In this document: positions 1,326 to 64,000 of the stretch, piece after piece
How the letters are laid out: every line of letters begins with the position of its first letter
Numbering within the stretch: the stretch's first letter is position 1
Notes under the pieces: generated by a model
The model's input: only the letters and a program-made list of their open reading frames with translations
The model's database searches: none
Told to the model about the DNA's origin: nothing
Origin: Candidatus Latescibacterota bacterium
GTDB taxonomy: Bacteria > Latescibacterota > UBA2968 > UBA8231
Length of the DNA: 64,000 nt
Assembly: GCA_965203175.1 (NCBI GenBank)
Contig: OZ241867.1
Span: 2,976,001 to 3,040,000, forward strand
Direction: 5' to 3'
Translations under genes and position numbers: made by a program

Positions 1326-2252
1326 TTAGAGATAACCAAATTCCCGCAAATCGCGCTCTTTGTTGCGCCAGTCTGGGCGGACTTTTACCCACAGTTCTAC
1401 ATAGACAGGCTCGTCGAGTAGTTCCTCCAGAGCAGTGCGGGCTTGGCGTCCGATTGATCGCAGGCGCATTCCCTTCTTGCCGATGACGATGCCCTTTTGG
1501 CTTTCGCGCCCGATGTAGATAATGGCGCGAATGTAGGTCTTGTGGCCCGGGCGCTGGCGGAATTCCTCGATGTGGATGTTGATGGCGTAAGGTAGCTCGT
1601 CCTCAAGGTGCTCAAAAGCTACCTCGCGGATGCGTTCAGCGGCAAAAAACCGCTCGGGCTGTTCGGCCACCATATCGTCTGGATAGAGCTTGGGGCCGCA
1701 GGGTAGTTGGGCCTCTAGGCACGATAGCAGTTTGCCGAGTCCGTCGCCGCGCAAAGCTGAGACCGGGATCGGGCTTGCGATGCCGAACTCGTCGGCGATG
1801 CTTTTTTGCAGGGCGTCTAGCTGGGTGGGTTGTACTAGGTCGATCTTGTTGAGCACGGCCAAGACTGGTGCTCGCGCACGCTCTAGAAAGTGCTTCACCA
1901 ACGCGCTGCGGTCTTTGGGGCGGGAGGCGTCGAACAGCAGCAAGACTAGGTCGGCTTGGCGGGCGGCTTGGTCGATTTGGTGGGCCATGGTCTCGTGCAG
2001 CTTGTAGGAGGACTCTAACAGGCCAGGCGTGTCCAAGAAAATTATCTGGCTCTGTGGACGAGTGAGGATACCGAGGATGCGGCTGCGAGTCGTCTGCGGT
2101 TTGGCGGTGACGATGGAGAGCCGTTGGCCCAAGAAGGCGTTGAAGAGGGTGGATTTACCCGCGTTGGGACGACCGGCCAAGGCCACGTAGCCGACGCGAG
2201 GTTGCTCAGAAGCGGAAGCTGGCGGACAACTGGTAGGTTGCTTCGAGCGCAT
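1326..2252 (-). CDS. era: GTPase Era
   Basis: G1 GRPNAGKST, KPQTTR, DTPG, NKID, KH-domain QKGIVIGKKG, LWVKVRPDW. Start uncertain: the only ATG overlaps the upstream gene by 47 nt. Confidence 0.93.
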   Translation of the reverse strand: MRSKQPTSCPPASASEQPRVGYVALAGRPNAGKSTLFNAFLGQRLSIVTAKPQTTRSRILGILTRPQSQIIFLDTPGLLESSYKLHETMAHQIDQAARQADLVLLLFDASRPKDRSALVKHFLERARAPVLAVLNKIDLVQPTQLDALQKSIADEFGIASPIPVSALRGDGLGKLLSCLEAQLPCGPKLYPDDMVAEQPERFFAAERIREVAFEHLEDELPYAINIHIEEFRQRPGHKTYIRAIIYIGRESQKGIVIGKKGMRLRSIGRQARTALEELLDEPVYVELWVKVRPDWRNKERDLREFGYL

Positions 2253-3138
2253 CGTGCTGCAAATAGGCGAGGTCGAGGTCGAGGCTGCGGTGGGGGGTAA
2301 GCCCTAGCCCAAAGGCTTGGCGGCCTTCCTCCAATCCAGCCCGCAAGGCGATGTAGCGATGGCGGTATTCTAGGCCGGCGTTGAGCGGGACGTCATCGGT
2401 TGCAGTGGATGCATCGCCGCCGGAGCGGGTGGCTAGGAGGGCGGTGGTCTGGCCCTCGGCGATGGGTATGGCGTACGCTACGCCCAAGAGCAGCGAAGGT
2501 TGGATGCGGTCGCTGCTGTCTGTATTCCAGACGATGGGCGTGGTGGTTGCGTCGCGCACGTTAGCTGCCAACGCGATTTGATGGCTCAATTGATAGCGCA
2601 CGCCTAGGTCGAGGCCAAAGCCGTAGGCGTTGATGGAGGCGACTTGGCGATAAATGGCCTTGGCGCTTAGCCCGAGGGATAAGCGCGCACCGAGCCGGCG
2701 ACTGCCCGACAGATACAGCGCGTAATCCGCGCTTTGTTCGGTCGAGGCGATGAGCGGACGGTTGCCAGTGCTGGGGGGCTGTAGAGGATCCGGGAGTTCG
2801 GTAAAGTGGATGTCGTCAATGCCCATGCGGACCAAGCTCAGGGCCATACCGTGCAAAAGGCGACCTGGCCGGGCAATGGCGACAAAATCGCGCTGGATGA
2901 GGCCGGAGAAGTGTTCGGAATGCGTCAGGTGAACTTGGCGACTGCTGAGGGCGGATAGACCGGCTGCATTCCAATAGCCCGCGGTGGCGTCGTCTGCGAG
3001 GGCTACATAAGCACTGCCCAAGGCCACAGAGCGGGCACCCGCGCCCAAGTCGAGGAACTCGCCGGCGTAGCGCGAGGCGGCGTGTACAGCCCCAGTCAGC
3101 AACAGGGCTAATGCAAGCGGAAGAAGACTCTTGGGCAT
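2206..3138 (-). CDS. PorV/PorQ-like (UPF0164) outer-membrane beta-barrel
   Basis: Signal peptide, then EFLDLGAGARSVALGSAYVALADDATAGYWNAAGL typical of the PorV/FadL-like N-terminus; alternating beta strands; C-terminal Phe (SASFRF). Confidence 0.75.
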   Translation of the reverse strand: MPKSLLPLALALLLTGAVHAASRYAGEFLDLGAGARSVALGSAYVALADDATAGYWNAAGLSALSSRQVHLTHSEHFSGLIQRDFVAIARPGRLLHGMALSLVRMGIDDIHFTELPDPLQPPSTGNRPLIASTEQSADYALYLSGSRRLGARLSLGLSAKAIYRQVASINAYGFGLDLGVRYQLSHQIALAANVRDATTTPIVWNTDSSDRIQPSLLLGVAYAIPIAEGQTTALLATRSGGDASTATDDVPLNAGLEYRHRYIALRAGLEEGRQAFGLGLTPHRSLDLDLAYLQHDALEATYQLSASFRF

Positions 3139-3217
3139 GGGTTGTAAAAAGCTAGTGGAAGGGTGGCCGAGTGTCAAATCGGCTCACTGCATCATCTCTT
3201 GCCGGGATGGACGATTT

Positions 3218-46946: not shown

Positions 46947-47402
46947 ATGAACGCACTACGAACGGCATGGACGACGGGCTTGGTCTTGCTGCTAGTCTCA
47001 GCGAGTGGAACTAGCAGCGGTCAGATTTATGACCTGCCGGAAGACAGCCGCGTATTCTACGTCTTCTCGCACGATAGGACCCCGCAGCGCCAGCGGATTT
47101 TGCAGCTATGGCAGCAGTTTAGCGCGCAAGATGCTGAGCAGCGGTTTATCGCCATTGCCCGCGACGAGCAAGTGCTAGCGATGGCCGAGGGCCTGACCTT
47201 GTGGTCGGCCGCTATGGCCGCGCAATCGCCGGAGGTACCTGCGTACATTAAGGCGCGGTTGGACGCCGACGGGGATTATTTCGCAGCCATAGATTCCGAG
47301 GGCACTTTGTACTTGGCCGGCCTAGGACAAGACCTGCTGCAACCCTTGTCCACGGAAGTGGATGAAAGCACTTGGGGCAAGGTAAAGGACTTGTTCAGAT
47401 AG
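46947..47402 (+). CDS. Small secreted protein with C-terminal STWGKVKDLFR tail
   Basis: Signal peptide; ends TEVDESTWGKVKDLFR. Confidence 0.65.
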   Translation: MNALRTAWTTGLVLLLVSASGTSSGQIYDLPEDSRVFYVFSHDRTPQRQRILQLWQQFSAQDAEQRFIAIARDEQVLAMAEGLTLWSAAMAAQSPEVPAYIKARLDADGDYFAAIDSEGTLYLAGLGQDLLQPLSTEVDESTWGKVKDLFR

Positions 47403-49306: not shown

Positions 49307-50917
49307 ATGCAAGCGAAGGGGGCTACGGGCGTTTCTTATCTCTATATCGTCCTTGCCCTGGGGCTGGCCCTGCGGCTTGTGAACCTGCAAGCGCCCCTGA
49401 CCGACAAGCAGGCTTGGCGTCAGACGGACACGGCCGCCATTGCCCGTAATTTTTACGAAGAGGGCTATTCGCTCTTCTATCCACGCGTCGATTGGCGCGG
49501 CACCACCCCTGGGTACGTGGAGACGAATTTGCCGCTGTACCCCTTTGTCGTTGCCCTACTCTATACCATAGCCGATGGTTCCTATGAGTGGCTCGGGCGC
49601 CTCGTGGCGGCACTGTGTTCGACGGCGGCCGCGGCATTTCTCTATTGGCTGGGTCTGCGATTGGGCATGGGGCGGCTGGGCGCGCTTTTAGCTGCTCTGC
49701 TCTATTTGCTTTTTCCCATGAGCATCTACTACGGGCGCACCTTTATGCCCGAGGCGCTGATGATCCTTTTGAGCGTGGGCGCGCTTTGGGCTTTTGCTCG
49801 GTGGATTGACAGCGGTCGCCGATGGGACTTCGCGCTGGCTGCACTGTTGGCCGCCCTGTGTTTCCTCGTCAAAATACCTACCCTCTATCTCGGTTTTCCG
49901 CTGGTCGCCTTAGCGTGGATTCGCTGGGGGTGGCGCTTCTTCATCAGGCCTGCGCTTTGGCTCTATCTCGCGCTGGTCTTAGTGCCTTCTATACTCTGGT
50001 ACTGGCATGCCAACCTGCTCTTTGAGGAAACCGGCCTGACGTTTGGCATCTGGAATCGCTACGGCTATGACAAGTGGGACCACAGCCTGCTCTTTACGGC
50101 GGATTTCTACTGGACGCTATTGAAACGCTTCTGGCATAGCGTCTATACGCCTGTGGGGGCGGTCCTGGTTTTGGCGGGACTCGCCCTCGCGCCTGTCCAA
50201 CGGCGCGAGTGGACACTGTGGGTGTGGATGGGAGGGCTGGTACTCTACTTCTTTGTCGTCCCCGAGGGCAATCGCAGGCTGCATTACTACCAGTTACCCT
50301 TTGTCCCGGTGGGGGCCCTGCTAGCCGGGCGGGTACTCGAAGCCGTTATTGAGACAGATGCCGCATCGGCCGGGTGGTGTAGATTCGCGCGGAACTGGAA
50401 GCACCGCTGGCGCGTCGCTTTAGTATGTACGCTGGTCGTTGGGGTTACCGCCTACAGTGCTTGGGCGGTTGGACCGTATTACGCACAGCCCAACAATTGG
50501 CACAATTACTACCAGAGCTGCCATTTGGTGGGTCGGATAATCGACGCCAAGTTGCCGCAGGATGCGCTGCTGGTCATCGGTGACGAGGACGAAAACACCG
50601 GAGTGCCGCACCGGTCGCAAAGCCCGACCTTGCTCTATTACTGCCATCGCAAGGGATGGCAAATAACTCCGCCCGAATTTGCGCCAGAGCGGCTCGACAG
50701 CCTAGCGGCCGAGGGTGCAGACTATTTTCTAGTCGCGGCTGGCTTCGCCGTGGATAACGAGCCTTTTTGGCAAGATCTCTTGCGCCGGGGCGTGACGATC
50801 CCTTCAGCGCACCCGCGTCAGTGGCACGACAGAGCAGAGTTCATGCGCTTTGTTACCCGGCAGCCAAGAAAGGATCGTCACTTCATTCTCGTATCTCTTG
50901 CAGCCGACGGCGAATAG
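49307..50917 (+). CDS. GT39/ArnT-PMT family polyprenyl-phosphate-sugar glycosyltransferase
   Basis: WRQTDTAAIARNF, E.NLPLYP, GRLVA, YGRTFMPEALM; many TM helices. Confidence 0.8.
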   Translation: MQAKGATGVSYLYIVLALGLALRLVNLQAPLTDKQAWRQTDTAAIARNFYEEGYSLFYPRVDWRGTTPGYVETNLPLYPFVVALLYTIADGSYEWLGRLVAALCSTAAAAFLYWLGLRLGMGRLGALLAALLYLLFPMSIYYGRTFMPEALMILLSVGALWAFARWIDSGRRWDFALAALLAALCFLVKIPTLYLGFPLVALAWIRWGWRFFIRPALWLYLALVLVPSILWYWHANLLFEETGLTFGIWNRYGYDKWDHSLLFTADFYWTLLKRFWHSVYTPVGAVLVLAGLALAPVQRREWTLWVWMGGLVLYFFVVPEGNRRLHYYQLPFVPVGALLAGRVLEAVIETDAASAGWCRFARNWKHRWRVALVCTLVVGVTAYSAWAVGPYYAQPNNWHNYYQSCHLVGRIIDAKLPQDALLVIGDEDENTGVPHRSQSPTLLYYCHRKGWQITPPEFAPERLDSLAAEGADYFLVAAGFAVDNEPFWQDLLRRGVTIPSAHPRQWHDRAEFMRFVTRQPRKDRHFILVSLAADGE

Positions 50918-50946
50918 TTGACAGCAGCCGAGGGCCTATATATTAT
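50918..50946 (+). promoter_or_regulatory. Near-consensus sigma70 promoter
   Basis: TTGACA-17 nt-TATTAT, followed by an AAGGAGG RBS for the 50997 gene. Confidence 0.75.
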
Positions 50947-50996
50947 GGCTCTTAGGTAATTGTCCGTTTTCTACGGTCCGTCACAAGGAGGGAGAG

Positions 50997-51692
50997 ATGG
51001 CGTCGAAGGTCGAATATACCCAGGTGCGAAAGTGGCTTCTGGTCGGTGCTCTAGCGGCTGTTGTAGCTGGCTGTGCCACCACCGGAGGCAGCGGAGGTGG
51101 TTATGGTCTGCCGCCCATTCCCGAGGGCAAGGGGCGGCTCATGTTGGAGACGGGAGGGATCAACGAAGTAAATTACTACGTACTCGACGGAGAGACTGGC
51201 GAGGAGGTCCACTCGGAATCGCCGCGCATGGCCGCGAGTTCACCCATAGGATACGAGACGGGCTACCGCTCTCTGCCGCAATTCGTCGATCTAGACCCTG
51301 GCAGCTATACCGTTGTGGTCAATACGGATATCGATGACAGTGTTGAGAAGGAAGTCGATGTCCTGATGGGACAGGAAATGTACGCGACCATACCCATCGG
51401 TCGTTTTCAGGTCATTTTTTCTGACGCACAGGGTCGCAGTCAGGTGCCTTTCCTGATTTTTGACTACAATTTGCGGACTATGCTAGGCCGGGGCATGACC
51501 TCGACAGAGGTGCGATACTTTATCGTGCCGGTGGGCGAGTATAAGGTTCGAATTGAAAATTCCCCCACTGGTTTGGACGAAATCAGGCCCGTACAGGTGA
51601 GCATGGGACAGACCCAAAACATTCTCATCGGCCCGCCGCCTTCGCCGGCACAACCGGGCGAAAGTGGGAGCGAAGGGGCCGCACAGCCTTAG
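50997..51692 (+). CDS. Lipoprotein with two small beta-sandwich repeats
   Basis: Lipobox VAGC; GRLML..LDPGSYTVVV and GRFQV..VPVGEYKVRI. Confidence 0.7.
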   Translation: MASKVEYTQVRKWLLVGALAAVVAGCATTGGSGGGYGLPPIPEGKGRLMLETGGINEVNYYVLDGETGEEVHSESPRMAASSPIGYETGYRSLPQFVDLDPGSYTVVVNTDIDDSVEKEVDVLMGQEMYATIPIGRFQVIFSDAQGRSQVPFLIFDYNLRTMLGRGMTSTEVRYFIVPVGEYKVRIENSPTGLDEIRPVQVSMGQTQNILIGPPPSPAQPGESGSEGAAQP

Positions 51693-51712
51693 GCTTATCG
51701 CGGAGCAATACC

Positions 51713-52618
51713 ATGAAGCGCACAGGACTATGGAGTGGGGTTGCACTCTTGGCCGCGTTGTGGGTATCGGCCAGTGAAGCTGCTACTTCCCCTCTCAAGG
51801 CGACCATTATCGATCGCTATGGCAACCAGCACCAAGTAGATAAGTTCACCTTTCAGGGGCGTCAGGATTTGGAAATCTACTTCCAAGGGCAGCGTCGTTT
51901 GGTGAAACTAGTCAAGGTGGCTCGGTTGCGCTTTGAAGGGGAACGCAGCGACGAGGAACAGCGCGTCGTGCTCGTATTCCGGAATGGCGTCCAAGAAGCG
52001 GGTTTGATGGTGACGGGAGGCTCTTCTTCGCCCCACCAGGATGCCGTCGGTGGTGGAAGCAGCGGGCGTCGCTTTGCTGGGGTGACCGAGTTGGGGCCTT
52101 TCTTCATCCTCGCCAGCGATGTGCAAGAGATTGTCTTGCGCCATCCCGTCGGCGAGGAGCCGCCGGCAGAAAAAATCCTCAAGGCCACGATCATCACGAC
52201 AAACGGCAGACGCTTTGAGGTGGAAGATTTGCGCTCTCACGGCAAGAAGCGGCTCGACTTTTTCAAGGGACGCAACAAGCGCTTTATCCCTTTAGATAAA
52301 GTGGCGCGAATCGACTTTGAAGACAGCGGGACGGGCGATGAGTTCAGGCCGATAACGGCTACCTATTGGTCGGGGAAAACCGTTATGGGCACGGTCGAGG
52401 CGAGCCTAGTTCGCCTTTCGGGCGAGACCGACAAGAGCTATTTCGAGCGCGTCAACCAAGCCTTTACAGGCGTCGTGGGCTCAAGTCCGTTTGCGATTGG
52501 TATGCACGACATAAAGCACATTCGCTTTCGGAAGGATAGTGATGAAGAGAGAGCTGACGATAAGGCCGAAGACAGCACCGACGACAGTGATAGCAACGGT
52601 GCCGGAGATTCTCAATAA
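51713..52618 (+). CDS. Secreted protein with an internally duplicated unknown domain
   Basis: Signal peptide; two LKATII..G..V....G...L....G......L.KVAR..FE units; acidic tail. Confidence 0.7.
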   Translation: MKRTGLWSGVALLAALWVSASEAATSPLKATIIDRYGNQHQVDKFTFQGRQDLEIYFQGQRRLVKLVKVARLRFEGERSDEEQRVVLVFRNGVQEAGLMVTGGSSSPHQDAVGGGSSGRRFAGVTELGPFFILASDVQEIVLRHPVGEEPPAEKILKATIITTNGRRFEVEDLRSHGKKRLDFFKGRNKRFIPLDKVARIDFEDSGTGDEFRPITATYWSGKTVMGTVEASLVRLSGETDKSYFERVNQAFTGVVGSSPFAIGMHDIKHIRFRKDSDEERADDKAEDSTDDSDSNGAGDSQ

Positions 52619-52905: not shown

Positions 52906-53808
52906 ATGAAACGTCTATATGGCCTCCTCGCTATGGGCCTAATAGTGGGCCTGACGAGCGGTGCCAGTGCGCATATTGGCGAACAGGTTTACCTGCTCTT
53001 TGAGATCTCTGAGGCCGATCTGGCTGACATTGACTTGCGCGATGCCGATATAGCCGACTGGGAAGATGTCGTTGGTGATGCTTCGCTGATCACCACTGAC
53101 TTTTTTCAGGATCCGACTGTGGGCGACGGTGCCCAGTACGATCCGGCGGATCTAGACTATCGCATCTGGCTAGGCTGGAACGGCAATCTCGGCACCATGT
53201 GGATGGCTATGGAGCGCATCGACAACGTGTACATTAACGAGTACGCTGGCGGTGACTTAGGTAGCTTGTGGAGGCAAGATGCCATTGAGTTCATGCTTGA
53301 TGGCGACCACACTGGTGGCGATTACACTGGTTCGGCTGATGAGAACTGGACCGACGAAGAGAAAGACCTGAATAACAACCGCACGGCTCAGCAGTACGTG
53401 GCTATCGGTGATACTCCTGATGGCCGCCACGTCGGCTATCTGGGCAAAGGCACCGAGTGGGTCAATGCACTGCCCTATGCTGACGGCGGTGGAGGGTCAA
53501 CCGGCGATGGCCCGACGACCACAATCATTGAGTTCTTCGTCACGCCTTTCGACGACCTGATCTGGAACAGCCCGGACGATAGCGTAGCTTCGGAGCTGGT
53601 CGATGGCAAGATCATTGGTTTCCAGATTTCGGCTCAGGACATGGATGAGGGGCCGAGTGACTACCGCGCTTTTCACACCTTGTCTGGTCAGGCCGCGACT
53701 TGGCGCTTTGCCGAGCGCTTCGTCGATGGTCGCTTGGTCGGCGTTGGTGGTGACGGTACGGCGGTCGAAGAAGACTCTTGGGGTCGCATCAAGGCCGCGT
53801 TTGAGTAA
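52906..53808 (+). CDS. Secreted CBM9/DOMON-like (putative sugar-binding) protein with C-terminal SWGRIKAAFE tail
   Basis: Signal peptide (ASA); D..I.DW, DLDYRIWLGW, W..DAIEFMLDGD, IIGFQI..D.D pattern; AAGGAG RBS; very acidic. Confidence 0.65.
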   Translation: MKRLYGLLAMGLIVGLTSGASAHIGEQVYLLFEISEADLADIDLRDADIADWEDVVGDASLITTDFFQDPTVGDGAQYDPADLDYRIWLGWNGNLGTMWMAMERIDNVYINEYAGGDLGSLWRQDAIEFMLDGDHTGGDYTGSADENWTDEEKDLNNNRTAQQYVAIGDTPDGRHVGYLGKGTEWVNALPYADGGGGSTGDGPTTTIIEFFVTPFDDLIWNSPDDSVASELVDGKIIGFQISAQDMDEGPSDYRAFHTLSGQAATWRFAERFVDGRLVGVGGDGTAVEEDSWGRIKAAFE

Positions 53809-53834
53809 CAGTAGCGTCCTGCTGTTTTCCTAAA

Positions 53835-53872
53835 TTTTAAGGAGAGGGGGAATATTCCTCCTCTCCTTAAAA
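53835..53872. terminator. Strong hairpin after the 52906 gene (terminator or stabiliser)
   Basis: TTTTAAGGAGAGG...CCTCTCCTTAAAA, a perfect 13-bp inverted repeat. Confidence 0.7.
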
Positions 53873-53986
53873 TCATCTTATGGCTATCGCATAGCTTGGG
53901 TAGCACCTTCCTCGCGTCATAATACCTCGCTCCTAGTTGCCCATGTGAAAACCTAGGCAGCGCAAATTCTACCGGGGAGTAACGGA

Positions 53987-56464
53987 ATGAGAATTGGGAT
54001 TTGTGTCGCCGTGCTGGTTTTGACAGGTTGGGTCGTAAATGCTGTTGCGGAGTTGCGTCTGTTCGCCATTCCGGGCAACACAACTTGGGCCGATGCTAAG
54101 CAGGGGCCGCTTTCAGAGAGTCGCTTCATTGAAGTAATCGACTTTGAAAGCTATGAGAATGGCATTGGACCCATCACGCCAACGCGCGTAGTGCCCGTTC
54201 CCGAAATTCCTCTCACCGCCGCCGAAGTGGACGCGGCAATCGATTCCAGCCTCTTTGCCTTCTCGCTTAATGTAACTAGAGCCGATGTAGTAGCACCGAC
54301 TGATATCGAACTCGAAGATGGTGAGATCGTAAAGGCGGGTACGGTCTTGATTCCTCGTTGGAATCCCTTTCCGCGTAACCTAGAGGCCGTCCAGTTATTG
54401 CGTCGGGCTGGCATCAGCGAGATTGAGGCCATGATTAATGTGGCCGAATCCTTTCCCCGCCCTCCCAGCGGTGACAAGTACAACAAGGGGCTCAACCTCA
54501 CGCCTCACGGCATTTTTGAAAGGGCTTTGACTGACCAGCGACTCCAGGAGGGCCTCTGGCACGTTTTCGATGGCGATCCACAGACCCATTTCGAGCGCAT
54601 CGACCGAGTTGGGCAGGACGTCAAACAGCAATGGAGCCTCTATATCGACTTGGGACGCTACTTTCCAGTTCGCTTGTTTCGCCTCTATCCCAGTCTTGAA
54701 GAGCCCTCGCGCGTTTCCGCGTATACCTTCTCTAGGGGGCTGCCTGGGACTGAGAAGGTAATCGCCGGTCTTAGTCTCGACGATCCGAGTGTTGGGCAGT
54801 TGGCATTCCCTAGGTTCAATAAGATAGCTTCGACTTTTCCGACCTTCGTTCTCGAGGCGAGCGCACCGGTCAATGTGGAAGACACCATTGCCGTGGCCTT
54901 TGAGCCGCAGGCCTACATGCGCTATGCGCGCTTTGAGTTTCAGACTCCACTGGATTACGATTTAGCTGAAATGGAGTTTTTAGCCGACGGTTTTGTGCCT
55001 GAAGCGATTTATACTTCCAACGCACTACCGCTGCCCCCAGCGACCTTGGGGCGGATCTTCTGGGACGAGCGAAAAATTGGCGATCCCACCAGATCGCGCG
55101 CTATCGTGCGCGTACAGACAGGCGTTAATACCGAGACGGAGGTCCTTTTTCGCGTCAACAAATTCGAGCGCTCGGTGGAGTGGAAAGAGGAAGGGGCGAT
55201 CATCACCGACCAACGGCTTGGCTCTAAGACCTTCGGCCAGGAAGTGGACCTAAACGATGAGGCTTTCAATCTGGAGGCCCGTGAGATTTTCAGTGCTGCC
55301 TTGTCCGAGGACCGAGCGCGAGTCCGCCTGACCCGCGACGAGTACAAGAAGCTGCCGGGCAATGAGCGGCGTCACGTCGAACCCGATCTCGAGTTTTGGA
55401 GCGGCGTCCAGTTGGCCAACAATGGCCAGTTGATCAATGCGCCGGGTGGTCGGCCCTTCATTCAGATTGAGGTTGAGTTTCTGAGCGAAGAGCCCGAGGC
55501 GGCCACGATTATTAGCAACTTGCGCTTTGAATACTCCGCTCCGCAGATCACAGAGCAGGTCTTCGGCGAGATTGCTCCGGCCGTGGATGTGATTGCTGGC
55601 CGCGACACCACCTTTGTGCTGGTCCTCAATGCTGGGTTAGGGGCTGAGAATAACGGGTTCAACCGCTTGCAGGTTTTCACGCCGGCGCGTGCGGAGGCCA
55701 TTGAGGGGGTGGAGGTGGATCTAGGCGACGGAGAGTTCCTGAACTTGGAACGAGTGGATGGCGACGGCGAGATAGGGGAGGGGCAGTTTCGAGCGTTGTA
55801 CGTTGCCGACGATCAGTTCGTCGTTGGTTTCCCAATCATAGGCCCAGCCGAGGAAGATCAAGTCCGCAACGCATTGGTAAAGGTCCGCTTTCAAGGCCGG
55901 GTCATTGACTTCCGCACCAACTTTGCTGCCAATGTCTTTTTAGACACTTTAGGTGCAGAAGCAGAACGACGCTTTACCAGTAGCGGCATTTTGGCACTCG
56001 GGGGTAATGAGAGTGCGCTCGATACGCTGGCCATTTTCTTGCCACAGCGGGTGGAGGACAATGACGTGGTGGATTTCGCGGCGACGGACCGGCTCTCAGA
56101 TCGCAATTCCCTAGCGGTGATTGCCGATATTTCAGCGCAGAGCGAGAGCCTAGTGACCAATTTCAAGGTCGTGCCCAATCCTTTTACGCCCAATGGCGAC
56201 GACGTCAACGACGAAGTAGTCGTGACTTTTGACGTCCAGCGGCTACTAACGCCGAAGCCTGTGCAGTTGGAGATATTCGATCTGAACGGTCGGCGTCTGC
56301 GCCTCATTGAGCGCCAGCTATCGTCGGGGGGATATTCGCAGCAGTGGGATGGCCGCGACGATGTTGGACAGGTAGTGCCTCCAGGACTATACCTATTGCG
56401 CATTTCGGCCGAAGCCGATCGTGCAGGTGAGGCCCAGACGCGCGTCGTTTCCGTAGCGTATTAG
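53987..56464 (+). CDS. Large secreted protein, discoidin-like domain plus C-terminal CHU_C/FlgD-Ig-like domain
   Basis: Signal peptide; VFDGDPQT..YIDLGRYFPV..RLYP; C-terminal PNPFTPNGDDVND..IFDLNGRRLR..WDGRDDVGQVVPPGLY. Confidence 0.75.
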   Translation: MRIGICVAVLVLTGWVVNAVAELRLFAIPGNTTWADAKQGPLSESRFIEVIDFESYENGIGPITPTRVVPVPEIPLTAAEVDAAIDSSLFAFSLNVTRADVVAPTDIELEDGEIVKAGTVLIPRWNPFPRNLEAVQLLRRAGISEIEAMINVAESFPRPPSGDKYNKGLNLTPHGIFERALTDQRLQEGLWHVFDGDPQTHFERIDRVGQDVKQQWSLYIDLGRYFPVRLFRLYPSLEEPSRVSAYTFSRGLPGTEKVIAGLSLDDPSVGQLAFPRFNKIASTFPTFVLEASAPVNVEDTIAVAFEPQAYMRYARFEFQTPLDYDLAEMEFLADGFVPEAIYTSNALPLPPATLGRIFWDERKIGDPTRSRAIVRVQTGVNTETEVLFRVNKFERSVEWKEEGAIITDQRLGSKTFGQEVDLNDEAFNLEAREIFSAALSEDRARVRLTRDEYKKLPGNERRHVEPDLEFWSGVQLANNGQLINAPGGRPFIQIEVEFLSEEPEAATIISNLRFEYSAPQITEQVFGEIAPAVDVIAGRDTTFVLVLNAGLGAENNGFNRLQVFTPARAEAIEGVEVDLGDGEFLNLERVDGDGEIGEGQFRALYVADDQFVVGFPIIGPAEEDQVRNALVKVRFQGRVIDFRTNFAANVFLDTLGAEAERRFTSSGILALGGNESALDTLAIFLPQRVEDNDVVDFAATDRLSDRNSLAVIADISAQSESLVTNFKVVPNPFTPNGDDVNDEVVVTFDVQRLLTPKPVQLEIFDLNGRRLRLIERQLSSGGYSQQWDGRDDVGQVVPPGLYLLRISAEADRAGEAQTRVVSVAY

Positions 56465-56505
56465 CCTTTAGCGAGAACGAAAAACGCGGGAAGAAAGGAA
56501 ATGCT

Positions 56506-59500
56506 ATGAAACGGTTGCTAAAGTGGCAGATGGCTCTCTTCGTCCTACTATCCCTGCCTAGTTTTTGTGTGGCCCAAACGGATGCCTATCGAATTTTCGG
56601 CAGCTCGATCCGCGTAGATAGGGCTTCGCACTGGAGAAACTGGATTTATCAGAACGATCTAGTCACAAATTTAAACGTACCAATCCGCGATGCGGACATT
56701 TTTCAGGTTGAGGCCGATGGGCTGCGGCCGACTTTCTTTCGCCGCAATATCAACGTGGCTCCGACGGCTGTCGATTTCACCTATCCCGATTTGGTCCGCG
56801 CTAACGGCGATCTAGTCTCTGGGGGTGCAACGGCCAAATCCAACGATGCCTTGGCCAATAATATCATTGATGGCGACTTGAATACCTTCTGGGAGCCGGA
56901 CACGCCGGTCAGTTATGCAAGCCGCTTGACCCGCCCTGGAGATTTCAATCCCGACGGTCTGCGCAACTGGGAAATTGAAATCGATCTGGGGCGGCTGGTC
57001 TTTGCCGATAGCCTGACGATCATTTTCCCCGCTGGTCAGTTCGAAGACGAGTTCCTCGGCGAGCCGGTCAAGTCCTTCGTGCTTTTCGCCTCGATGGGTG
57101 AGCGCTTCCCCTTTCCCTTGGGTAACAACCTCAAGTTTTCCGTCATCGGTCAAGTCTCTACCGGCTTTGTCGCCGGCAAATTGGCCCAGTGCGTACGCGA
57201 TGAAAGCGCGGGCTACGCTGGCGAGACCCGCTGTGCAGAAGAGGAAGTAGGTGAGACCGGTGAAGTGACGCTGGTTCCGATGCCTGGGACTGAGGGTCGC
57301 TACGCGCAGATGACCTTCTCGCTCTTGCCGCTGGATCGAGCTGACTGGGACGAGGATGGCCGACCCGATATTAGCGGAGCTTTCATCCATTACGTCCGCA
57401 TTAAAGTTACGGATTCAGACCTCTGGCGCGACGCCTTTTTGGGAACGGGGGAAGAGGCGCGCCTCGCCTATGAAGCATTGCCCCAAGAACAGCGCGGTGC
57501 GATCCTCTATCAGCGCCAGACTGCCGGCGGCCTACTCGTCGATCTTCAAAACGACGATAACCTGACGGCTGAAGAAAAGTATCAAGTTCTGCCCGAGGAA
57601 AAACGCGGTCCGATCCTCTATTATAGCAGGGAGGTTCCCCGGATTGCCGAGGTTCAGGTCTGGGCCAAGGGCGACAACTACGCGCTGCAACCCGAAAGGC
57701 GCGGGGGGGCCTCGTTTGAAAACGGCGGTTTGGGTGCGCCCAATTTGTCCACGGATGGGCTGTACGACTCGGAGTGGGTGGCCAATACATGGTCGCCGGT
57801 ATACCTCAAGGGCACGGCTTGGTACGACTTAGGAGCCGTGTTTTGGGTCGACAATGTCTCAGTGGTCAACAAGCGCATTAACCAGAGTCACAAAGGTGCC
57901 TTTTTGGGACCGGATATTTTGGTTTCCGACGGCACGTTGCTCAAACCCGTGAGTATGAACGATCGCGACGACTTCCCCCAGCTGGAAGAAGCGCTCAAGT
58001 GGGACAACATCATCAGCGAGGAGCACGTCGATAACCGCGATCCGGTAGTGCGCATTTTTCGCGAGACTTTTCCCTACCGCAAGATTCGCTTTCTACAAAT
58101 CCGCGACATTGACGTCACCGGGCAGCAATCCGGTCGCTATGGCGCGCTAGCGACGTTGGGCGAGATTCAGCTTTACGGCGAGGGATATCCAGTCAGCGTG
58201 TGGGCGTACTCGCCACCGATCACGCTGACTGATTCGCGTGGCAATTTCATTCGCAAAACCCTGCCGCGCATCGCTTGGGAAGGCGATGTCATCGTCCACG
58301 AGACCGATCCGCTCACCGGCCAAGCCATCGAACGCATCGAGCCGTTGAATCTTCACCCAGATGTCCGCTTACAGGTACAGACTCGCACTTCGGATCAGAC
58401 TGACACCAATTTCACGTATTACCAAGTCGTGACCGTCGCTGGCAACGAAGAGCGCACGGAAGTGACGAAAGAGGTTTACGACGAGATCGCCTTGGAGTGG
58501 ACGGCCTGGGAGATCTGGCAGACCCTGCCCGCCAGCCAGAAACACGCCTCGCGCACCGACGACGACGGCGACGGTCTGGTGGACGAGGATCGGATTGACC
58601 TGATTGACAACGATGGCGATGGTCTGGTGGACGAGGACGGCAGGAAGCTGCGCCGGGCACCGCGCTCGAGCTTTGCCAAGGACGGCGAACTGGCGTTTGT
58701 CGGCTGGAGCGAGTGGAGCGAGAGCTACCTGCCGACCCATGGCGTCAACGAGGCGACCATCACCTCACCCAACCCGCGCAAGTTCGTTCAGGTGCGGGTC
58801 AATCTCTCTTCAGAAGATCCCTTCAAGACGGCGCGCATCCGCAGTTTGCGCATTGAGTTGGCACCACCGCTGTCGCTTGAACTGGCTGGCGAGTTGGCGC
58901 TCCTCACCGACGAGGGAGTAGCGCGCGTGCCGACCGATTTGGGTGTCCTGGTTTCGGACTACACGCCGCCGCGCAATATCGATCCGCTCGCGCCGCAGCA
59001 GTTTTCTTATTTCATCCGCGCTGCCGCGCCCGACCCGACCGATGCAACGGTGCGCGACGGCTTTAACGAGGTGCTGGTTGTCGCGCCGCGCGATGCGCGC
59101 TTGACCGGTGTGCGCTTGGGGCAGGTCGCCATCGCCCAGACGCCTTCGCTCCTCAACCCGGAGGAAGTGCTGACCTCGGCGACGACTACGAAGTTCGACC
59201 GCGCCTTTGTCCCCGGTGACGACGGGGTCTTGCGCGATGCAGACGGCGCAGTGTTGGAACGCATGGCGACCGGCGCGGATTCGATCTGGGTGCGTTTTCC
59301 CTTTTCGCTCAATGCCGACCTGCCGGCTGGCCAGCATGCCCTCATTGAGGTGCAGTTTGAATCGCAGAGCTTCCGCGAGGGCATTGAATTCGCCTCGTTT
59401 GTGCGCTCTTCAGATTCAGAAGAGGGCCTATTCCAACGGGTGGACACCGCCGATAAGGATGCGACCGAGTTGGTGGATTCTTCGACGGCGCAGGTCAGCT

Positions 59501-59841
59501 TGATGGCGCTGCCGGGGTCTTTGATCCAAGACGTAGTGCTAGCACCGGTCTTTACGCCCAACGGCGATGGGATTAACGATGAACTCTTGGTGCATTTCGT
59601 TTTGTTGAAGGTACAGGAGGAGCGTCCGTTAGACGTTGCATTTTACGATTTGGGAGGACGCTTGGTAGGTCAAGGGCAGGGCTCGGCGGTTGGTGGCAAG
59701 GTAGGGACGCAGGCGTTTGTGTGGGATGGACGGGATATGAATGGTCAGATTGTGCCACCGGGGATCTATCTCTGTCAGATCAAGCTAGAAGCCGACGATC
59801 AAGCCAGCAAATTGACGCGCCTTGTTCACGTAGCTTATTGA
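56506..59841 (+). CDS. Large secreted protein, two discoidin-like domains, Ca-binding repeats and C-terminal CHU_C/FlgD-Ig-like domain
   Basis: NIIDGDLNTFW..IDLGR; STDGLYDSEW..YDLGAVFWV; DDDGDGLVDED x2; VFTPNGDGIND..YDLGGRLV..WDGRDMNGQIVPPGIY. Confidence 0.75.
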   Translation: MKRLLKWQMALFVLLSLPSFCVAQTDAYRIFGSSIRVDRASHWRNWIYQNDLVTNLNVPIRDADIFQVEADGLRPTFFRRNINVAPTAVDFTYPDLVRANGDLVSGGATAKSNDALANNIIDGDLNTFWEPDTPVSYASRLTRPGDFNPDGLRNWEIEIDLGRLVFADSLTIIFPAGQFEDEFLGEPVKSFVLFASMGERFPFPLGNNLKFSVIGQVSTGFVAGKLAQCVRDESAGYAGETRCAEEEVGETGEVTLVPMPGTEGRYAQMTFSLLPLDRADWDEDGRPDISGAFIHYVRIKVTDSDLWRDAFLGTGEEARLAYEALPQEQRGAILYQRQTAGGLLVDLQNDDNLTAEEKYQVLPEEKRGPILYYSREVPRIAEVQVWAKGDNYALQPERRGGASFENGGLGAPNLSTDGLYDSEWVANTWSPVYLKGTAWYDLGAVFWVDNVSVVNKRINQSHKGAFLGPDILVSDGTLLKPVSMNDRDDFPQLEEALKWDNIISEEHVDNRDPVVRIFRETFPYRKIRFLQIRDIDVTGQQSGRYGALATLGEIQLYGEGYPVSVWAYSPPITLTDSRGNFIRKTLPRIAWEGDVIVHETDPLTGQAIERIEPLNLHPDVRLQVQTRTSDQTDTNFTYYQVVTVAGNEERTEVTKEVYDEIALEWTAWEIWQTLPASQKHASRTDDDGDGLVDEDRIDLIDNDGDGLVDEDGRKLRRAPRSSFAKDGELAFVGWSEWSESYLPTHGVNEATITSPNPRKFVQVRVNLSSEDPFKTARIRSLRIELAPPLSLELAGELALLTDEGVARVPTDLGVLVSDYTPPRNIDPLAPQQFSYFIRAAAPDPTDATVRDGFNEVLVVAPRDARLTGVRLGQVAIAQTPSLLNPEEVLTSATTTKFDRAFVPGDDGVLRDADGAVLERMATGADSIWVRFPFSLNADLPAGQHALIEVQFESQSFREGIEFASFVRSSDSEEGLFQRVDTADKDATELVDSSTAQVSLMALPGSLIQDVVLAPVFTPNGDGINDELLVHFVLLKVQEERPLDVAFYDLGGRLVGQGQGSAVGGKVGTQAFVWDGRDMNGQIVPPGIYLCQIKLEADDQASKLTRLVHVAY
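58573..58637 (+). repeat. 17-nt direct repeat at 48-nt period encoding a duplicated DxDGDGLVDED motif
   Basis: GGTCTGGTGGACGAGGA at 58573 and 58621. Confidence 0.8.
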
Positions 59842-59887
59842 TAAAGCAGTAGTTCGGACCGGAATTCGACAACAAGGGAGGGTATTT

Positions 59888-62638
59888 GTGAATATAGTTA
59901 GGAGTTTCCGCATCGGTGTGGTGGCAATCGTGATGTTAGGAGTGATGGTGGAAGACCTCCCCGCACAGGAAGATTTCGGCTCGCGCTTGGGCGTGCGTCG
60001 TGGCGGGGAGGTTTTTTACGACCCCATCGGGCCAGGGGTACTTTTCGATGCGTTGGATCCAGCGGTGAAGAAGTGGTACGTGCCGCAGGAACTCTTCAAC
60101 GAGTACCAATGGCGGCAACAGGACTATACCAATTACGCCCGGCGGCACTATTCGCGCTATGTGAACACAAGCCAAGAAGGCGATTATTTTTACGATCTGT
60201 ACGGGAATTACATCACCCGCGGCGAACTCATTTACGACTGGAGCATTGCAGCGCCGCAGACCTCGGGTAGCAGCCTGTTTAAGACCACCCGATTCAATAG
60301 CTGGTTTACGAACTTGGTCATCGCCTCGGATCAGAAGGGCCAATACGCCTATGCCCTGACCATTGGCGACCGCATCCGCACGACGCTGACGCCGATGACC
60401 TTTTCCAAACCGACCTTTGCCGGTATTCAGTTTGACCTAGCTACGGACAAATACGAGGCGACCTTTCTCGCCTCGCGCCCTAGTGCGCCTGGTTACGTCG
60501 GAGCCTCAGCAACGGCTACTACCGGTCGTTTCCGCTCGAATGACACCAACTTGATCGGCGGACGCGGCACCATGCAGGTCGGCGACTTTGTCAAGTTGGG
60601 AGCGACCTACATCAATGCTTTCAACTCTTCGACCAAAGGGCAGGCATTTCAGGGCAACCCCTTCAAGGGCACGCTCACCGAGGGCCAGAACAACGCAGAC
60701 GTTTCGCGTATTGAAGTGCGCTTGAGCGACGATTCGCCCGAGGATGGCAGGGCGGGCGCGGCCTTCTTTCAGGAGGAGATGATCATTACGACCATCGATG
60801 GCGAGCGCATCAGCAACCGTCGTCGCATCGGCAATAGCAACATACTCGCCTTCGGCCCCGCGGTACAGGGCGGTTTTCGCCGCGAGGGTTTCCTCGCGGC
60901 CGATGGCAACGAGGTCATCGTACTAGTGTACGATTTAGAAGGCCCTCAGTACCGCAACTCCTTCGGCCCCCAGCCAGAGCAGATCAAGAGCATTGAGTTC
61001 CTGTTGCTTTTGGCCAACGACTACCGGATCGACGTTACCTCCAACCGCCAGCTCAACGCCAACGGCCAGCCGGTCTTGATCTCTGAGGGCATTCCCGAGC
61101 GCACGATGCGCGCCGACGGCAACGTGCAGGATGGCTCGAATCAGGGATTTGTGAGCGTCAAATACGGGTTGCCGGTAGCCAATGAGATCTTCGGCTTTAC
61201 GCTCGATATTATGGATGTCAGCGGATTTTACTTATCGGGGGAATACGACCGCAATCGCCAGCACTTTCGCTATCCACGGCGGTCGGAAACCGACGTGACC
61301 CAGCATACGGCGTACAACAGCTCGGCCGACGCTTGGTTTGTCAATGTGTATAAACGCGCTTATCCCTACTTTGGCTTCGGCGAAGTCTATAATGTTGATC
61401 CCGACTACAGCACTAGTTCCTTTCTAGCTGGTACCCAAAACGATGCAGCGGACATCAATTACGACGATGACATCCGTTTCGTTTACGAATTCGTCGATGA
61501 CAACGACGATCAAGATCGCAATCCCGACTGGCTTCGGGCCAATTTCTCGCAGGATAGGGAAGTCTTCCCAGGGTTCGACGAAAACAACGACTTCATCAAC
61601 GACTTCAATCAGAACGACTCCGAGTGGCGCGAGAACACAGTGCCTGATTACGAGGAGCCGTTTCTGCGCTACGCATCCGATCGACCTGAGTTCCTCTTTG
61701 GTCTTGATATGAACAACAACGGTATCATTGACCGCTTTGAAAACGACATTTTACCAGACTATCTGTACAAACGGGATCGGCGCGGCTACAACATCTATGT
61801 AGGTTCTCATTTAGGGCCGGAGGCACGGCTGACTGTCGGTCGCCTCGACGAACGCCAGCTAGCAGACGCTCGCGAGAACGCCACCAACTACGCCTTGCTG
61901 ACCTTTGACAAGGACTACGCCAGCAAGGGGCGCGTGCAAATATACAACAACTATCGGCAGGTCCGCGACGATATTCGCGACAATGTGATAGAGTGGGTTG
62001 TGCGCGAGGGATCGCGCGGCGACCTAGTGCCCTATACCGACCCTCTCCCTCTGCGCGATGGCTGGGCTAATACCTTGTATCTCGGCTATCAGTACCAGAG
62101 CGACCACATCCACTTTAAGAACCGCCTTAAGTGGGAGGTTTTCAAACAGGACAATTTCGGCGAGCGACCGCTTGATGAACAGGACATCCGCGAGACGGCG
62201 TCCTTCTTCGGAGTCCTCAACAAGATCGATTATACGTTCAACCTCGGGATCCTCAAGTTCCAGCCGCGCTGGAAGAGCGAGTTCCAGCGCCAGCGGCCCT
62301 CGCGCCGCCAGGATACGCAGGTGCGGGTAGCGACCACCGAGTTGCACGAGCTGTGGTCGCTGGTTGTGCACGTCCCAATTCTGTCGCGCACCCAATTGCA
62401 GACCGGCCTAGAGTACCTGCTCGTCGAGCAGTTCCGCGAGGAGTTGGAAACCCATTTGCTGCGCTCGGACCGCAACGAGTTGGTCTATGCCTTGCAGTTT
62501 ACCAACAACGCCGAATACCTAGGCTACAACCTGTGGACCCAGACTGGATTTCGCGTGTCGCGGATTGATCGCGCTTCGGCCGAAAGGGCACGCACTGAAA
62601 CGGCCATATTCGTCACTGTGTACGCCGGTCTTGAGTAG
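59888..62638 (+). CDS. Large exported protein, probable outer-membrane beta-barrel with EF-hand-like loops
   Basis: Signal peptide; Tyr/Phe-rich amphipathic strands; DDNDDQD, DENNDFIND, DMNNNGIID; last strand IFVTVYAGLE. Confidence 0.6.
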   Translation: MNIVRSFRIGVVAIVMLGVMVEDLPAQEDFGSRLGVRRGGEVFYDPIGPGVLFDALDPAVKKWYVPQELFNEYQWRQQDYTNYARRHYSRYVNTSQEGDYFYDLYGNYITRGELIYDWSIAAPQTSGSSLFKTTRFNSWFTNLVIASDQKGQYAYALTIGDRIRTTLTPMTFSKPTFAGIQFDLATDKYEATFLASRPSAPGYVGASATATTGRFRSNDTNLIGGRGTMQVGDFVKLGATYINAFNSSTKGQAFQGNPFKGTLTEGQNNADVSRIEVRLSDDSPEDGRAGAAFFQEEMIITTIDGERISNRRRIGNSNILAFGPAVQGGFRREGFLAADGNEVIVLVYDLEGPQYRNSFGPQPEQIKSIEFLLLLANDYRIDVTSNRQLNANGQPVLISEGIPERTMRADGNVQDGSNQGFVSVKYGLPVANEIFGFTLDIMDVSGFYLSGEYDRNRQHFRYPRRSETDVTQHTAYNSSADAWFVNVYKRAYPYFGFGEVYNVDPDYSTSSFLAGTQNDAADINYDDDIRFVYEFVDDNDDQDRNPDWLRANFSQDREVFPGFDENNDFINDFNQNDSEWRENTVPDYEEPFLRYASDRPEFLFGLDMNNNGIIDRFENDILPDYLYKRDRRGYNIYVGSHLGPEARLTVGRLDERQLADARENATNYALLTFDKDYASKGRVQIYNNYRQVRDDIRDNVIEWVVREGSRGDLVPYTDPLPLRDGWANTLYLGYQYQSDHIHFKNRLKWEVFKQDNFGERPLDEQDIRETASFFGVLNKIDYTFNLGILKFQPRWKSEFQRQRPSRRQDTQVRVATTELHELWSLVVHVPILSRTQLQTGLEYLLVEQFREELETHLLRSDRNELVYALQFTNNAEYLGYNLWTQTGFRVSRIDRASAERARTETAIFVTVYAGLE

Positions 62639-62648
62639 GAGGTTTCCC

Positions 62649-63407
62649 ATGCTGAAATATTTCACACCACTGCTTTTGGTCGGGTTACTTTTTCCGGGCT
62701 GCTCCTATCGCTACTATGCCGAAGACCTCAAACCACTGAGCGAGGCCGAGCAAGGAGCCAACAAGACGGTGGCCGACGATGGCACCGTATCCTATACCCA
62801 GGCTCGCCTTGAGATCAGCCTGCGGCCGATGACCGACGCGGAGTTGAACCGTCAGTTCAGCGCGTACTCCAACGAGGGGCCCAACTCACAGAACCCCTAC
62901 ACGTTTGGCAACTCGACGTACTTTCGCACTGGGGACACCCCGCAGCGCTTCACTGTTTTCCGCATGTATGTTTCCAATTACGAATATCCCAAAGTCTATC
63001 TCGATCCCAAAAAGGTCTATGTAACCACTCCTAACGGGCGCAAGTACTACGCGTTGAGATTCGAACAGCTCTCAATATACTATCGTCGCTACGTCGGCAG
63101 CGGCAAAGGCGGTGGGGAGCCTGGGATGCCCGGCAATGCCATGTTCACTTGGAAAGAGCGCGAAAGCATCTTGCGGCGCACGATGTTTCCCGATGAGGAT
63201 GTGTTCAGCGCTCAGGAGAACGAAGGGTATATCGTCTTCAAGCCACTGGCCCCGGATGTGGAGGAACTGACTGTTCATATCCCCGATGTGGTAGTGCGAT
63301 TCGACTATAAGGGGGATCCGATAGAGGACGTGGATATCGAAATGCACTTTGAGCGCGAGATTGGTCGCATCTATCCCGACGGACGCAAAGTGGCGACCAG
63401 CCAATAG
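62649..63407 (+). CDS. Uncharacterised lipoprotein
   Basis: GGAGG RBS; MLKYFTPLLLVGLLFPGC lipobox. Confidence 0.75.
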   Translation: MLKYFTPLLLVGLLFPGCSYRYYAEDLKPLSEAEQGANKTVADDGTVSYTQARLEISLRPMTDAELNRQFSAYSNEGPNSQNPYTFGNSTYFRTGDTPQRFTVFRMYVSNYEYPKVYLDPKKVYVTTPNGRKYYALRFEQLSIYYRRYVGSGKGGGEPGMPGNAMFTWKERESILRRTMFPDEDVFSAQENEGYIVFKPLAPDVEELTVHIPDVVVRFDYKGDPIEDVDIEMHFEREIGRIYPDGRKVATSQ

Positions 63408-63490
63408 GGCAGCGCGGAACTCACAATTGAACTTTAACTAGCTGCGCGGTGCCAAAGCGGTACCGCGCAGTTTTGTACTGGGAAAAACGT

Positions 63491-64000
63491 ATGTCTTGGC
63501 GATTTTTTGTCTGCGGCATCTCCTTAGCCGTTGCAGGTTGCGCGTCGGAGAATGAACCGGCCACCCCAGAGACGGTTTTGGCCACGGTGGGGGAGGAGAT
63601 GATCACGGCTTTGGACCTCCACCGCTACGAGCAAGCGCTGCCCGACTATCTGCACTCGAAGAAAGAGGGGGTAGCCGCCCGCGGCGAAAACCTACAGACC
63701 CTAGTCGACAAGGAGCTCATGCTGCGCGAGGCCTACAAGCGGGGGTTGGACCAGTTGCCTGGGCTCGCCTATACGCTGTCCGACATGGTCAATAAGCGCT
63801 TGGCCGAGAAACTATCGCGCGAGTGGATCGACGCCCGGCTCAAGGTGACCGAGGAGGAACTGCGCGCCGCGTACGAGGAGCATTTGCTCGGTTGGGAAAT
63901 CTGGCCGGCGCACATTCTCTCGGCTACCGAAGAAGACGCTTGGGCCATCATCCGCCAATTGGAAGCCGGGGCCAACTTTTCCGAATTGGCACGCCAGCAC
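63491..64000 (+). CDS. PrsA/SurA-like parvulin peptidyl-prolyl isomerase lipoprotein (partial)
   Basis: MSWRFFVCGISLAVAGC lipobox; VLATVGEEMIT; LVDKELMLREA; VTEEEL..AY; AHIL..TEEDA..LEAGANFSELARQH; runs off the window. Confidence 0.85.
   Translation, partial: MSWRFFVCGISLAVAGCASENEPATPETVLATVGEEMITALDLHRYEQALPDYLHSKKEGVAARGENLQTLVDKELMLREAYKRGLDQLPGLAYTLSDMVNKRLAEKLSREWIDARLKVTEEELRAAYEEHLLGWEIWPAHILSATEEDAWAIIRQLEAGANFSELARQH

Follow-up and report, generated by a model that had tools for sequence, protein, structure and literature searches.

The SusC/SusD utilisomes comprise dozens of paralogous loci, in which an outer-membrane barrel is combined with surface glycan-binding folds, energy is provided by ExbBD and further inner-membrane proteins are encoded nearby. 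The Agl-Glt and Agl-Nfs machineries of Myxococcus bring together an ExbB-type subunit and two ExbD-type subunits, a giant TPR protein, outer-membrane barrels, a lipoprotein and a surface adhesin. In the T9SS of Bacteroidota, according to two studies, type-B cargo forms pairs with its cognate PorP/SprF barrels and stays on them (PMC9143113, PMC12618676). A third study mentions the possible presence of T9SSs in further phyla of the FCB group (PMC11285876), and a preprint refers to a different SprA-linked FCB operon (bioRxiv 10.1101/2025.01.14.632903).

The cassette compared here with these systems is carried by the genome of an uncultured marine Candidatus Latescibacterota bacterium (6.58 Mb in a single contig, rated 93% complete), in which the window, that is, the whole stretch of 64,000 nucleotides that was analysed, spans positions 2976001-3040000. 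More than one fifth of the words of the region are present in seven RNA-library runs from three sponge studies, and the nearest relatives of its barrel, with 94-96% identity, belong, going by record titles, to Candidatus Latescibacterota or Gemmatimonadota bins. The original prediction had described six co-oriented genes for exported proteins. Their reading frames were confirmed, and all six products have signal-peptide-like or lipobox-like N-termini, as read from the sequence (Table 1). The genes are real, but the cassette as first drawn was incomplete, since a seventh conserved gene (gene G) belongs to it; moreover, the host has 40 paralogous loci of this kind, the cassette included.

Table 1. 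Features of the cassette and the PorV/PorQ-family gene of the window (window positions unless stated otherwise)
Feature	Position	Strand	Description
Gene A	52906-53808	+	300 aa, secreted acidic CBM9-like protein, TAVExxSWGxIK tail; 45 paralogues
Hairpin	53834-53873	+	18-bp purine/pyrimidine hairpin, 3' of gene A
Gene B	53987-56464	+	825 aa, family B; CBM32/discoidin fold, more beta-sandwich domains, Tyr-ended CHU_C/FlgD-type tail
Gene C	56506-59841	+	1111 aa, family B; two discoidin-like stretches (alignment), DxDxDG repeats, tail of the gene B type
Gene D	59888-62638	+	916 aa, unnamed predicted giant outer-membrane beta-barrel; 62 paralogues
Gene E	62649-63407	+	Unnamed lipoprotein, 252 aa from ATG; longer TTG frame from 62565; 18 paralogues
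Gene F	63449 to past the window (genome 3041152)	+	567 aa, SurA/PrsA-like parvulin lipoprotein; 43 paralogues
Gene G	Outside the window, 2 nt after gene F		672 aa, SGNH hydrolase + TPR
PorV/PorQ-family gene	2206-3177	-	NF033709, 96.5 bits (cut-off 90); one of 11 host matches; 50 kb from the cassette

The paralogue totals of Table 1 come from searches of our own ORF calls with profiles made from the host genome's own sequences. The same searches placed the giant barrels in 40 loci and returned 234 proteins with a terminal tail; the labelled families, including a few smaller ones, make up about 13.5% of the host genome on these ORF calls. Of 101 genomes sampled across the phylum, 58 have the giant barrel, among them all 31 of its own family and none of the 38 from two sister families.

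Conservation of the gene order was analysed in 20 loci fetched round the top-scoring barrel matches, a sample that is therefore not random. The full order A-B-C-D-E-F-G was found in nine of them, from four genera, and three more agree with the cassette as far as the contig end. The other eight are a sister version, with a barrel 54-58% identical and the same core order, some of them without gene F or with gene E moved. Thus, the order is kept in related loci. The convergent neighbours (ASPIC/UnbV, TPR, PMT-TPR glycosyltransferase and a further family-B gene) are largely conserved too. Beside the cassette, a conserved convergent operon at genome 3043148-3052672 encodes a family-B protein, a PMT_2-TPR glycosyltransferase, TPR proteins and an FG-GAP/ASPIC protein. 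On the other side, before gene A, window positions 49307-52618 hold genes for a PMT_2 glycosyltransferase, a 231-aa lipoprotein and a 301-aa protein without assigned function, of which at least the latter two were seen in eight of the nine complete orthologous loci.

Gene A alone gave no Pfam match; the profile of its family (32 sequences) matches the CBM9 structure 1i82 (E 6.9e-7), in agreement with the CBM9 likeness first noticed. In most gene A paralogues the mature protein begins with His and a DHSGG motif is kept. The single promoter with a long leader that had been assigned to the six genes is not supported: no sigma-70-like site was found on the plus strand, and the upstream region aligns poorly over ten orthologous loci. 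The intergenic region 53809-53986 folds with a z-score of -4.13, none of 200 shuffles being equally stable, and its hairpin stands between gene A and the remaining cassette genes. A similar hairpin occurs in 13 of 14 related loci. Hairpins below -20 kcal/mol accompany 41 of 45 gene A paralogues compared with three of 45 sampled family-B genes, the values for barrels and parvulins being 12 of 45 and ten of 43, respectively. The element is likely a terminator or an mRNA-stabilising structure, and gene A would be transcribed or stabilised in excess of the other genes of the cassette.

The tails reported originally, WGxxK in the product of gene A and FTPNGD..WDGRD..VPPG.Y in those of genes B and C, are present in the sequence. 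The tail of gene B passes Pfam CHU_C (29 against a cut-off of 27), that of gene C stays below it at 24.8 bits, and both score below the cut-off of TIGR04131. In the model of gene B the tail resembles the uncleaved domain of PorU/PorZ, whose tails are described as uncleaved in PMC11285876. The same model displays the expected discoidin-like domain as a CBM32/discoidin fold (fold match); in gene C two such stretches were located by alignment. Judging from these modelled folds the cassette would capture glycans, but CBM32-type folds also occur, by fold match, in proteins that bind no sugar (IFT25, DOC domains), which weighs against a role in glycan capture and import.

Among the tailed proteins, 173 cluster by a common body and constitute family B. 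All except four of these (169 of 173) end in Tyr, mostly with TPNGD. The remaining 61 have varied bodies, with PNPFN in 57 and a terminal Tyr in none. A third tail, TAVExxSWGxIK, is found at the end of 92 host proteins that differ in kind. In 76 of the 92, a T[ASG][VI] linker stands ahead of this WG tail, and T[AS][VI] ahead of PNPFN in 40 of 68 and of TPNGD in nine of 169, the search windows for these counts being unequal (12 vs 40 residues). The linker is a candidate processing site without counterpart in family B, and the short WG tail, which shares it with the PNPFN class, is a candidate miniature sorting signal. In the form T-x-V-E-x-x-S/T-W-G-x-I/V-K the tail is seen at window positions 46947-47402 and in about 90 genes genome-wide, many of them for unrelated secreted proteins.

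The product of gene D, earlier described as barrel-like, is predicted to form a large beta-barrel (model pLDDT 83) of about 24-26 strands by count, with a beta domain as an insertion and with conserved loops rich in Asp; the model is poor over residues 1-83, the part in which a plug would be expected. At E 0.1 it had no match in Pfam or NCBIfam, TonB-dependent receptors included, and the profile search returned no solved relative. The top Foldseek rows are LptD, MtrB, the FimD/PapC ushers and Deinococcus SlpA, with query TM of 0.17-0.31, rmsd of 16-32 and identity of 7-11%. These large plugged barrels are of a similar size class and have the general barrel shape alone in common with gene D. 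In gene E, Cys18 is invariant across 14 aligned copies; the protein has no meaningful Pfam or NCBIfam match, and none to PorE, TPR, WD40 or OmpA. Gene F encodes the predicted parvulin chaperone lipoprotein, the rotamase domain of which matches PF00639 with 59 bits (cut-off 21.7).

The surroundings of gene E were surveyed in eight relatives, mostly with one or two E copies each. In four of the eight the genes come in the order family B, small PorV-like gene, one to three barrels, TPR (about 1090-1180 aa), ExbB, two ExbD and E, with DUF4159 present in two of these four operons. A fifth has the same core order without a detected PorV-like gene, a sixth is rearranged, one contig is too short and one relative has only E and the PorV-like gene. 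The run TPR-ExbB-ExbD-ExbD is in order in five of the eight genomes and rearranged in one more. ExbBD-TPR-DUF4159 and gene E are parts of an ancestral core operon, the single operon to which the system is reduced in low-copy relatives. In the host, a block at genome 3053056-3061643, 13-22 kb past the window end, contains paralogues of genes A and E together with a PorV/PorP-like gene, TPR, ExbB, ExbD and DUF4159, most of the energy module being located at 15-22 kb. The idea of a system without an energy module is therefore not supported, given that the ancestral operon includes ExbB-ExbD, the giant TPR protein and a DUF4159 protein of TonB-like shape. The latter possesses a Lys/Pro-rich linker and one or two membrane helices, and seven of 13 distinct membrane-anchored copies carry an S/A-x3-H helix motif that we take to be TonB-like. 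In one relative genome cassette and energy block form a single co-oriented run. Over 14 stretches downstream of the cassette, the block is full in three and partial in two, and another barrel cassette follows in five; its full presence in only three of the 14 counts against import.

The 311-aa gene located 15 kb past the window scores 48.8 against the PorP cut-off of 90.55 and 73 against the PorV cut-off of 90, both insufficient. A copy 92% identical to it lies at genome 4466216-4467226. Elsewhere, a 663-aa membrane protein (genome 2809837-2811828) comes after another PorV-like/TPR/ExbBD core locus. The original prediction took the 916-aa barrel as the partner that type-B tails require. Since a separate small PorV/PorP-like gene is placed between cargo and giant barrel in four of the eight relatives, most of them low-copy, the secretion shuttle is more likely to be this small barrel than the product of gene D.

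ExbB with two ExbD, a giant TPR protein, barrels and a lipoprotein echo the Agl-Glt/Nfs layout. GT-C (PMT_2) glycosyltransferase genes on both flanks of the cassette and the SGNH protein at its end, in conserved order, would also suit a complex for the export, modification or spreading of a polymer or glycoprotein layer at the cell surface, in the manner of the Myxococcus machineries. Such a function in envelope building is nevertheless very improbable, for the NCBIfam matches of the core proteins include no Glt family and no polysaccharide-synthesis cluster recurs by the loci; moreover, T9SS tails, CBM32 cargo and massive paralogy set the cassette system apart from Agl-Glt/Agl-Nfs.

Directly upstream of the barrel there is a family-B gene in 42 of 62 cases and another barrel in 14. 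The clade of a barrel tends to agree with the class of the gene upstream of it, and the tree distances of the 42 barrel-cargo pairs are correlated (Mantel rho 0.30 for the tail, 0.43 for the body), although cassette duplication alone could yield such a correlation. A copy of gene C, 90% identical and looking like a recent duplication, is found at genome 1357881-1361141 with no barrel near, adjoining a cluster for WG-tailed propeller proteins. Tight barrel-cargo pairing and type-B-like tails, together with the permanence of type-B cargo on its cognate barrels in Bacteroidota reported in PMC9143113 and PMC12618676, favour surface display only. The giant barrels would then serve as anchors or scaffolds of lectin adhesins secreted by the T9SS, with a role in adhesion, host interaction or a surface coat and no import, as an enlarged type-B cargo/PorP/PorE module. 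FG-GAP/ASPIC or TPR proteins beside 35 of the 40 barrel loci (a cluster merged via TPR repeats) and the small number of enzymes agree with this. We place it on the unlikely side, however, since an anchor needs neither a barrel of about 24-26 strands nor an ExbBD motor, the core operon already encodes a small PorV/PorP-like barrel and the system is also found in relatives from free-living settings, e.g. groundwater, going by record titles.

The likeness to the type-B/PorP/PorE module includes the CHU_C-like tail, the cargo gene beside the barrel gene, the many paralogous pairs, the operon lipoprotein, SprA in the genome and, in low-copy relatives, the small PorV/PorP-like gene after the cargo. 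By contrast, gene D is about three times the length of PorP and bears no likeness to PorV, gene E is not PorE-like, no GldKLMN was detected, ExbBD, TPR and DUF4159 are linked, and all 169 cargo proteins share one body. With SusC/SusD the system has in common the many loci, the combination of barrel and lectin folds, ExbBD and the proximity of inner-membrane proteins. It differs from it in that T9SS tails replace lipid anchors and few enzymes lie near the loci; the cassette has, as predicted, no TonB-receptor or SusD match. Because the defining parts of type-B/PorP are only partly matched and those of SusC/SusD are not, the cassette is filed under neither. No profile library or literature search named it, and no description came from the literature searches, which had most subscription journals and paper supplements outside their reach. 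The conserved order and the models support a multi-gene envelope module with T9SS-like tails, lectin-fold cargo and a real barrel, and none of the three outcomes that would have refuted the original prediction was observed.

The T9SS components of the host were surveyed as the original prediction had suggested. SprA (TIGR04189 above cut-off, 2129-aa ORF) and PorU (above cut-off), which adjoins PorV, were found, but the GldKLMN motor was not detected: GldL, GldM and GldN had no match in searches run without positive control, and GldK had partial matches only, far below cut-off. PorP/SprF (TIGR03519) gave one weak match in the host, none above cut-off and none within the cassette. The porU-porV pair is located at genome 2958213-2963109, 13-18 kb before the window, and is followed by the gene for an M6-peptidase-like protein with a tail. 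The predicted PorV-like gene of the window is a genuine family match (Table 1), with no evidence, at its distance, of membership in the cassette.

Co-occurrence was analysed in 35 genomes picked by barrel status, the 15 negatives coming from two families only. Family B is present in 20 of 20 barrel-positive and none of 15 barrel-negative genomes, and SprA in all 35. In 20 genomes, gene E occurs in 12 of 12 positives and gene A in 10 of 12, and both are absent from the eight negatives. The barrel-negative genomes are kin and not independent, and may represent one or two losses. Two sister families retain SprA and at least 23 DUF6785 genes without the barrel, family B, A or E at the thresholds used.

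The lack of Gld matches above cut-off, the co-encoding of cargo, barrel, foldase and motor, a match of the TPR protein to PorW/SprE below cut-off (117 of 250 bits) and the presence of ushers and LptD among the weak fold matches of gene D would be in keeping with dedicated export, in which the giant barrel itself is the family-B translocon and energy from ExbBD-TPR-DUF4159 replaces the missing GldKLMN. We judge this unlikely, in view of the fact that 62 translocon paralogues would be unusual, that the family-B tail folds like known SprA clients and that the Gld searches were run without a positive control. Moreover, the presence of SprA in all 15 genomes without the barrel system implies that the module is not a general motor of SprA.

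The reading that we favour, and to which we give nearly an even chance, is that the cassette, like its paralogous loci forty in all, encodes a version of a giant-barrel module without a name, and that this module is a proton-powered surface machine which captures glycans or glycoconjugates and imports them. Paralogy as extensive as that of utilisation loci, the lectin folds, ExbBD, a single SusD match elsewhere in the host (PF07980) and the proximity of DUF6785 membrane proteins to barrels (33 of 51 within 20 kb, compared with eight expected) point in this direction. The likeness of DUF6785 to peptide transporters, with a score of 0.78, is only a lead. On the other hand, DUF6785 is missing at the cassette (nearest 36.6 kb), equally expanded in all 15 genomes without the barrel and not present in four that have it. 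Degrading enzymes are also scarce by the loci: a sulfatase-like family accompanies six of the 40, no glycoside hydrolase family was recognised among the most recurrent neighbours, a minority of which were scanned, and the SGNH domain of gene G is the only candidate for a degrading enzyme in the cassette. In addition, the host already has 29 TonB-dependent receptor matches, and the plug region of gene D is the poorly modelled one.

For this capture and import machine we propose the following model. Proteins B and C would cross the outer membrane via SprA, guided by the Tyr-ended tail and the small PorV/PorP-like shuttle. The tail would probably be retained, and B and C would dock on barrel D with their CBM32 domains outward as substrate-selecting arms. 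The product of gene A, likely made in excess, would be a soluble or surface binding protein, while parvulin F would assist the folding of the large clients or hold them, with lipoprotein E as a constant partner of the barrel. Energy from ExbB-ExbD would be transmitted via the DUF4159 protein and the giant TPR protein, shared in trans among many accessory cassettes, each of them tuned to its own substrate as in polysaccharide utilisation loci. In its widest form, which we hold to be somewhat doubtful, the proposal would define a new class of proton-powered outer-membrane transporter, with a barrel of about 24-26 strands, gating by TPR/DUF4159 in place of TonB and swappable lectin arms delivered by the T9SS; three-signal sorting (PNPFN, Tyr-ended, WGxIK) would operate on a T9SS without known motor, and the system would be the way in which Latescibacterota feed on complex polymers.

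The present analysis adds the synteny of the cassette and its tie to the ExbBD block, a candidate shuttle in the small barrel, the classes of tails and the hairpin. Despite their spread through the sampled genomes of the phylum, the barrel and the lipoprotein have neither a family name nor a solved relative. Whatever the function, T9SS parts (SprA, PorU, PorV and two or three tail classes) are used without detectable GldKLMN, and the system is a candidate for connecting, outside Bacteroidota, the energy of ExbBD with T9SS cargo. In the relatives, the core operon in one copy constitutes a small gene set open to expression and testing. If polymer import is true, the module would be an independent solution to the job of SusC/SusD and would explain the feeding of an uncultured phylum.
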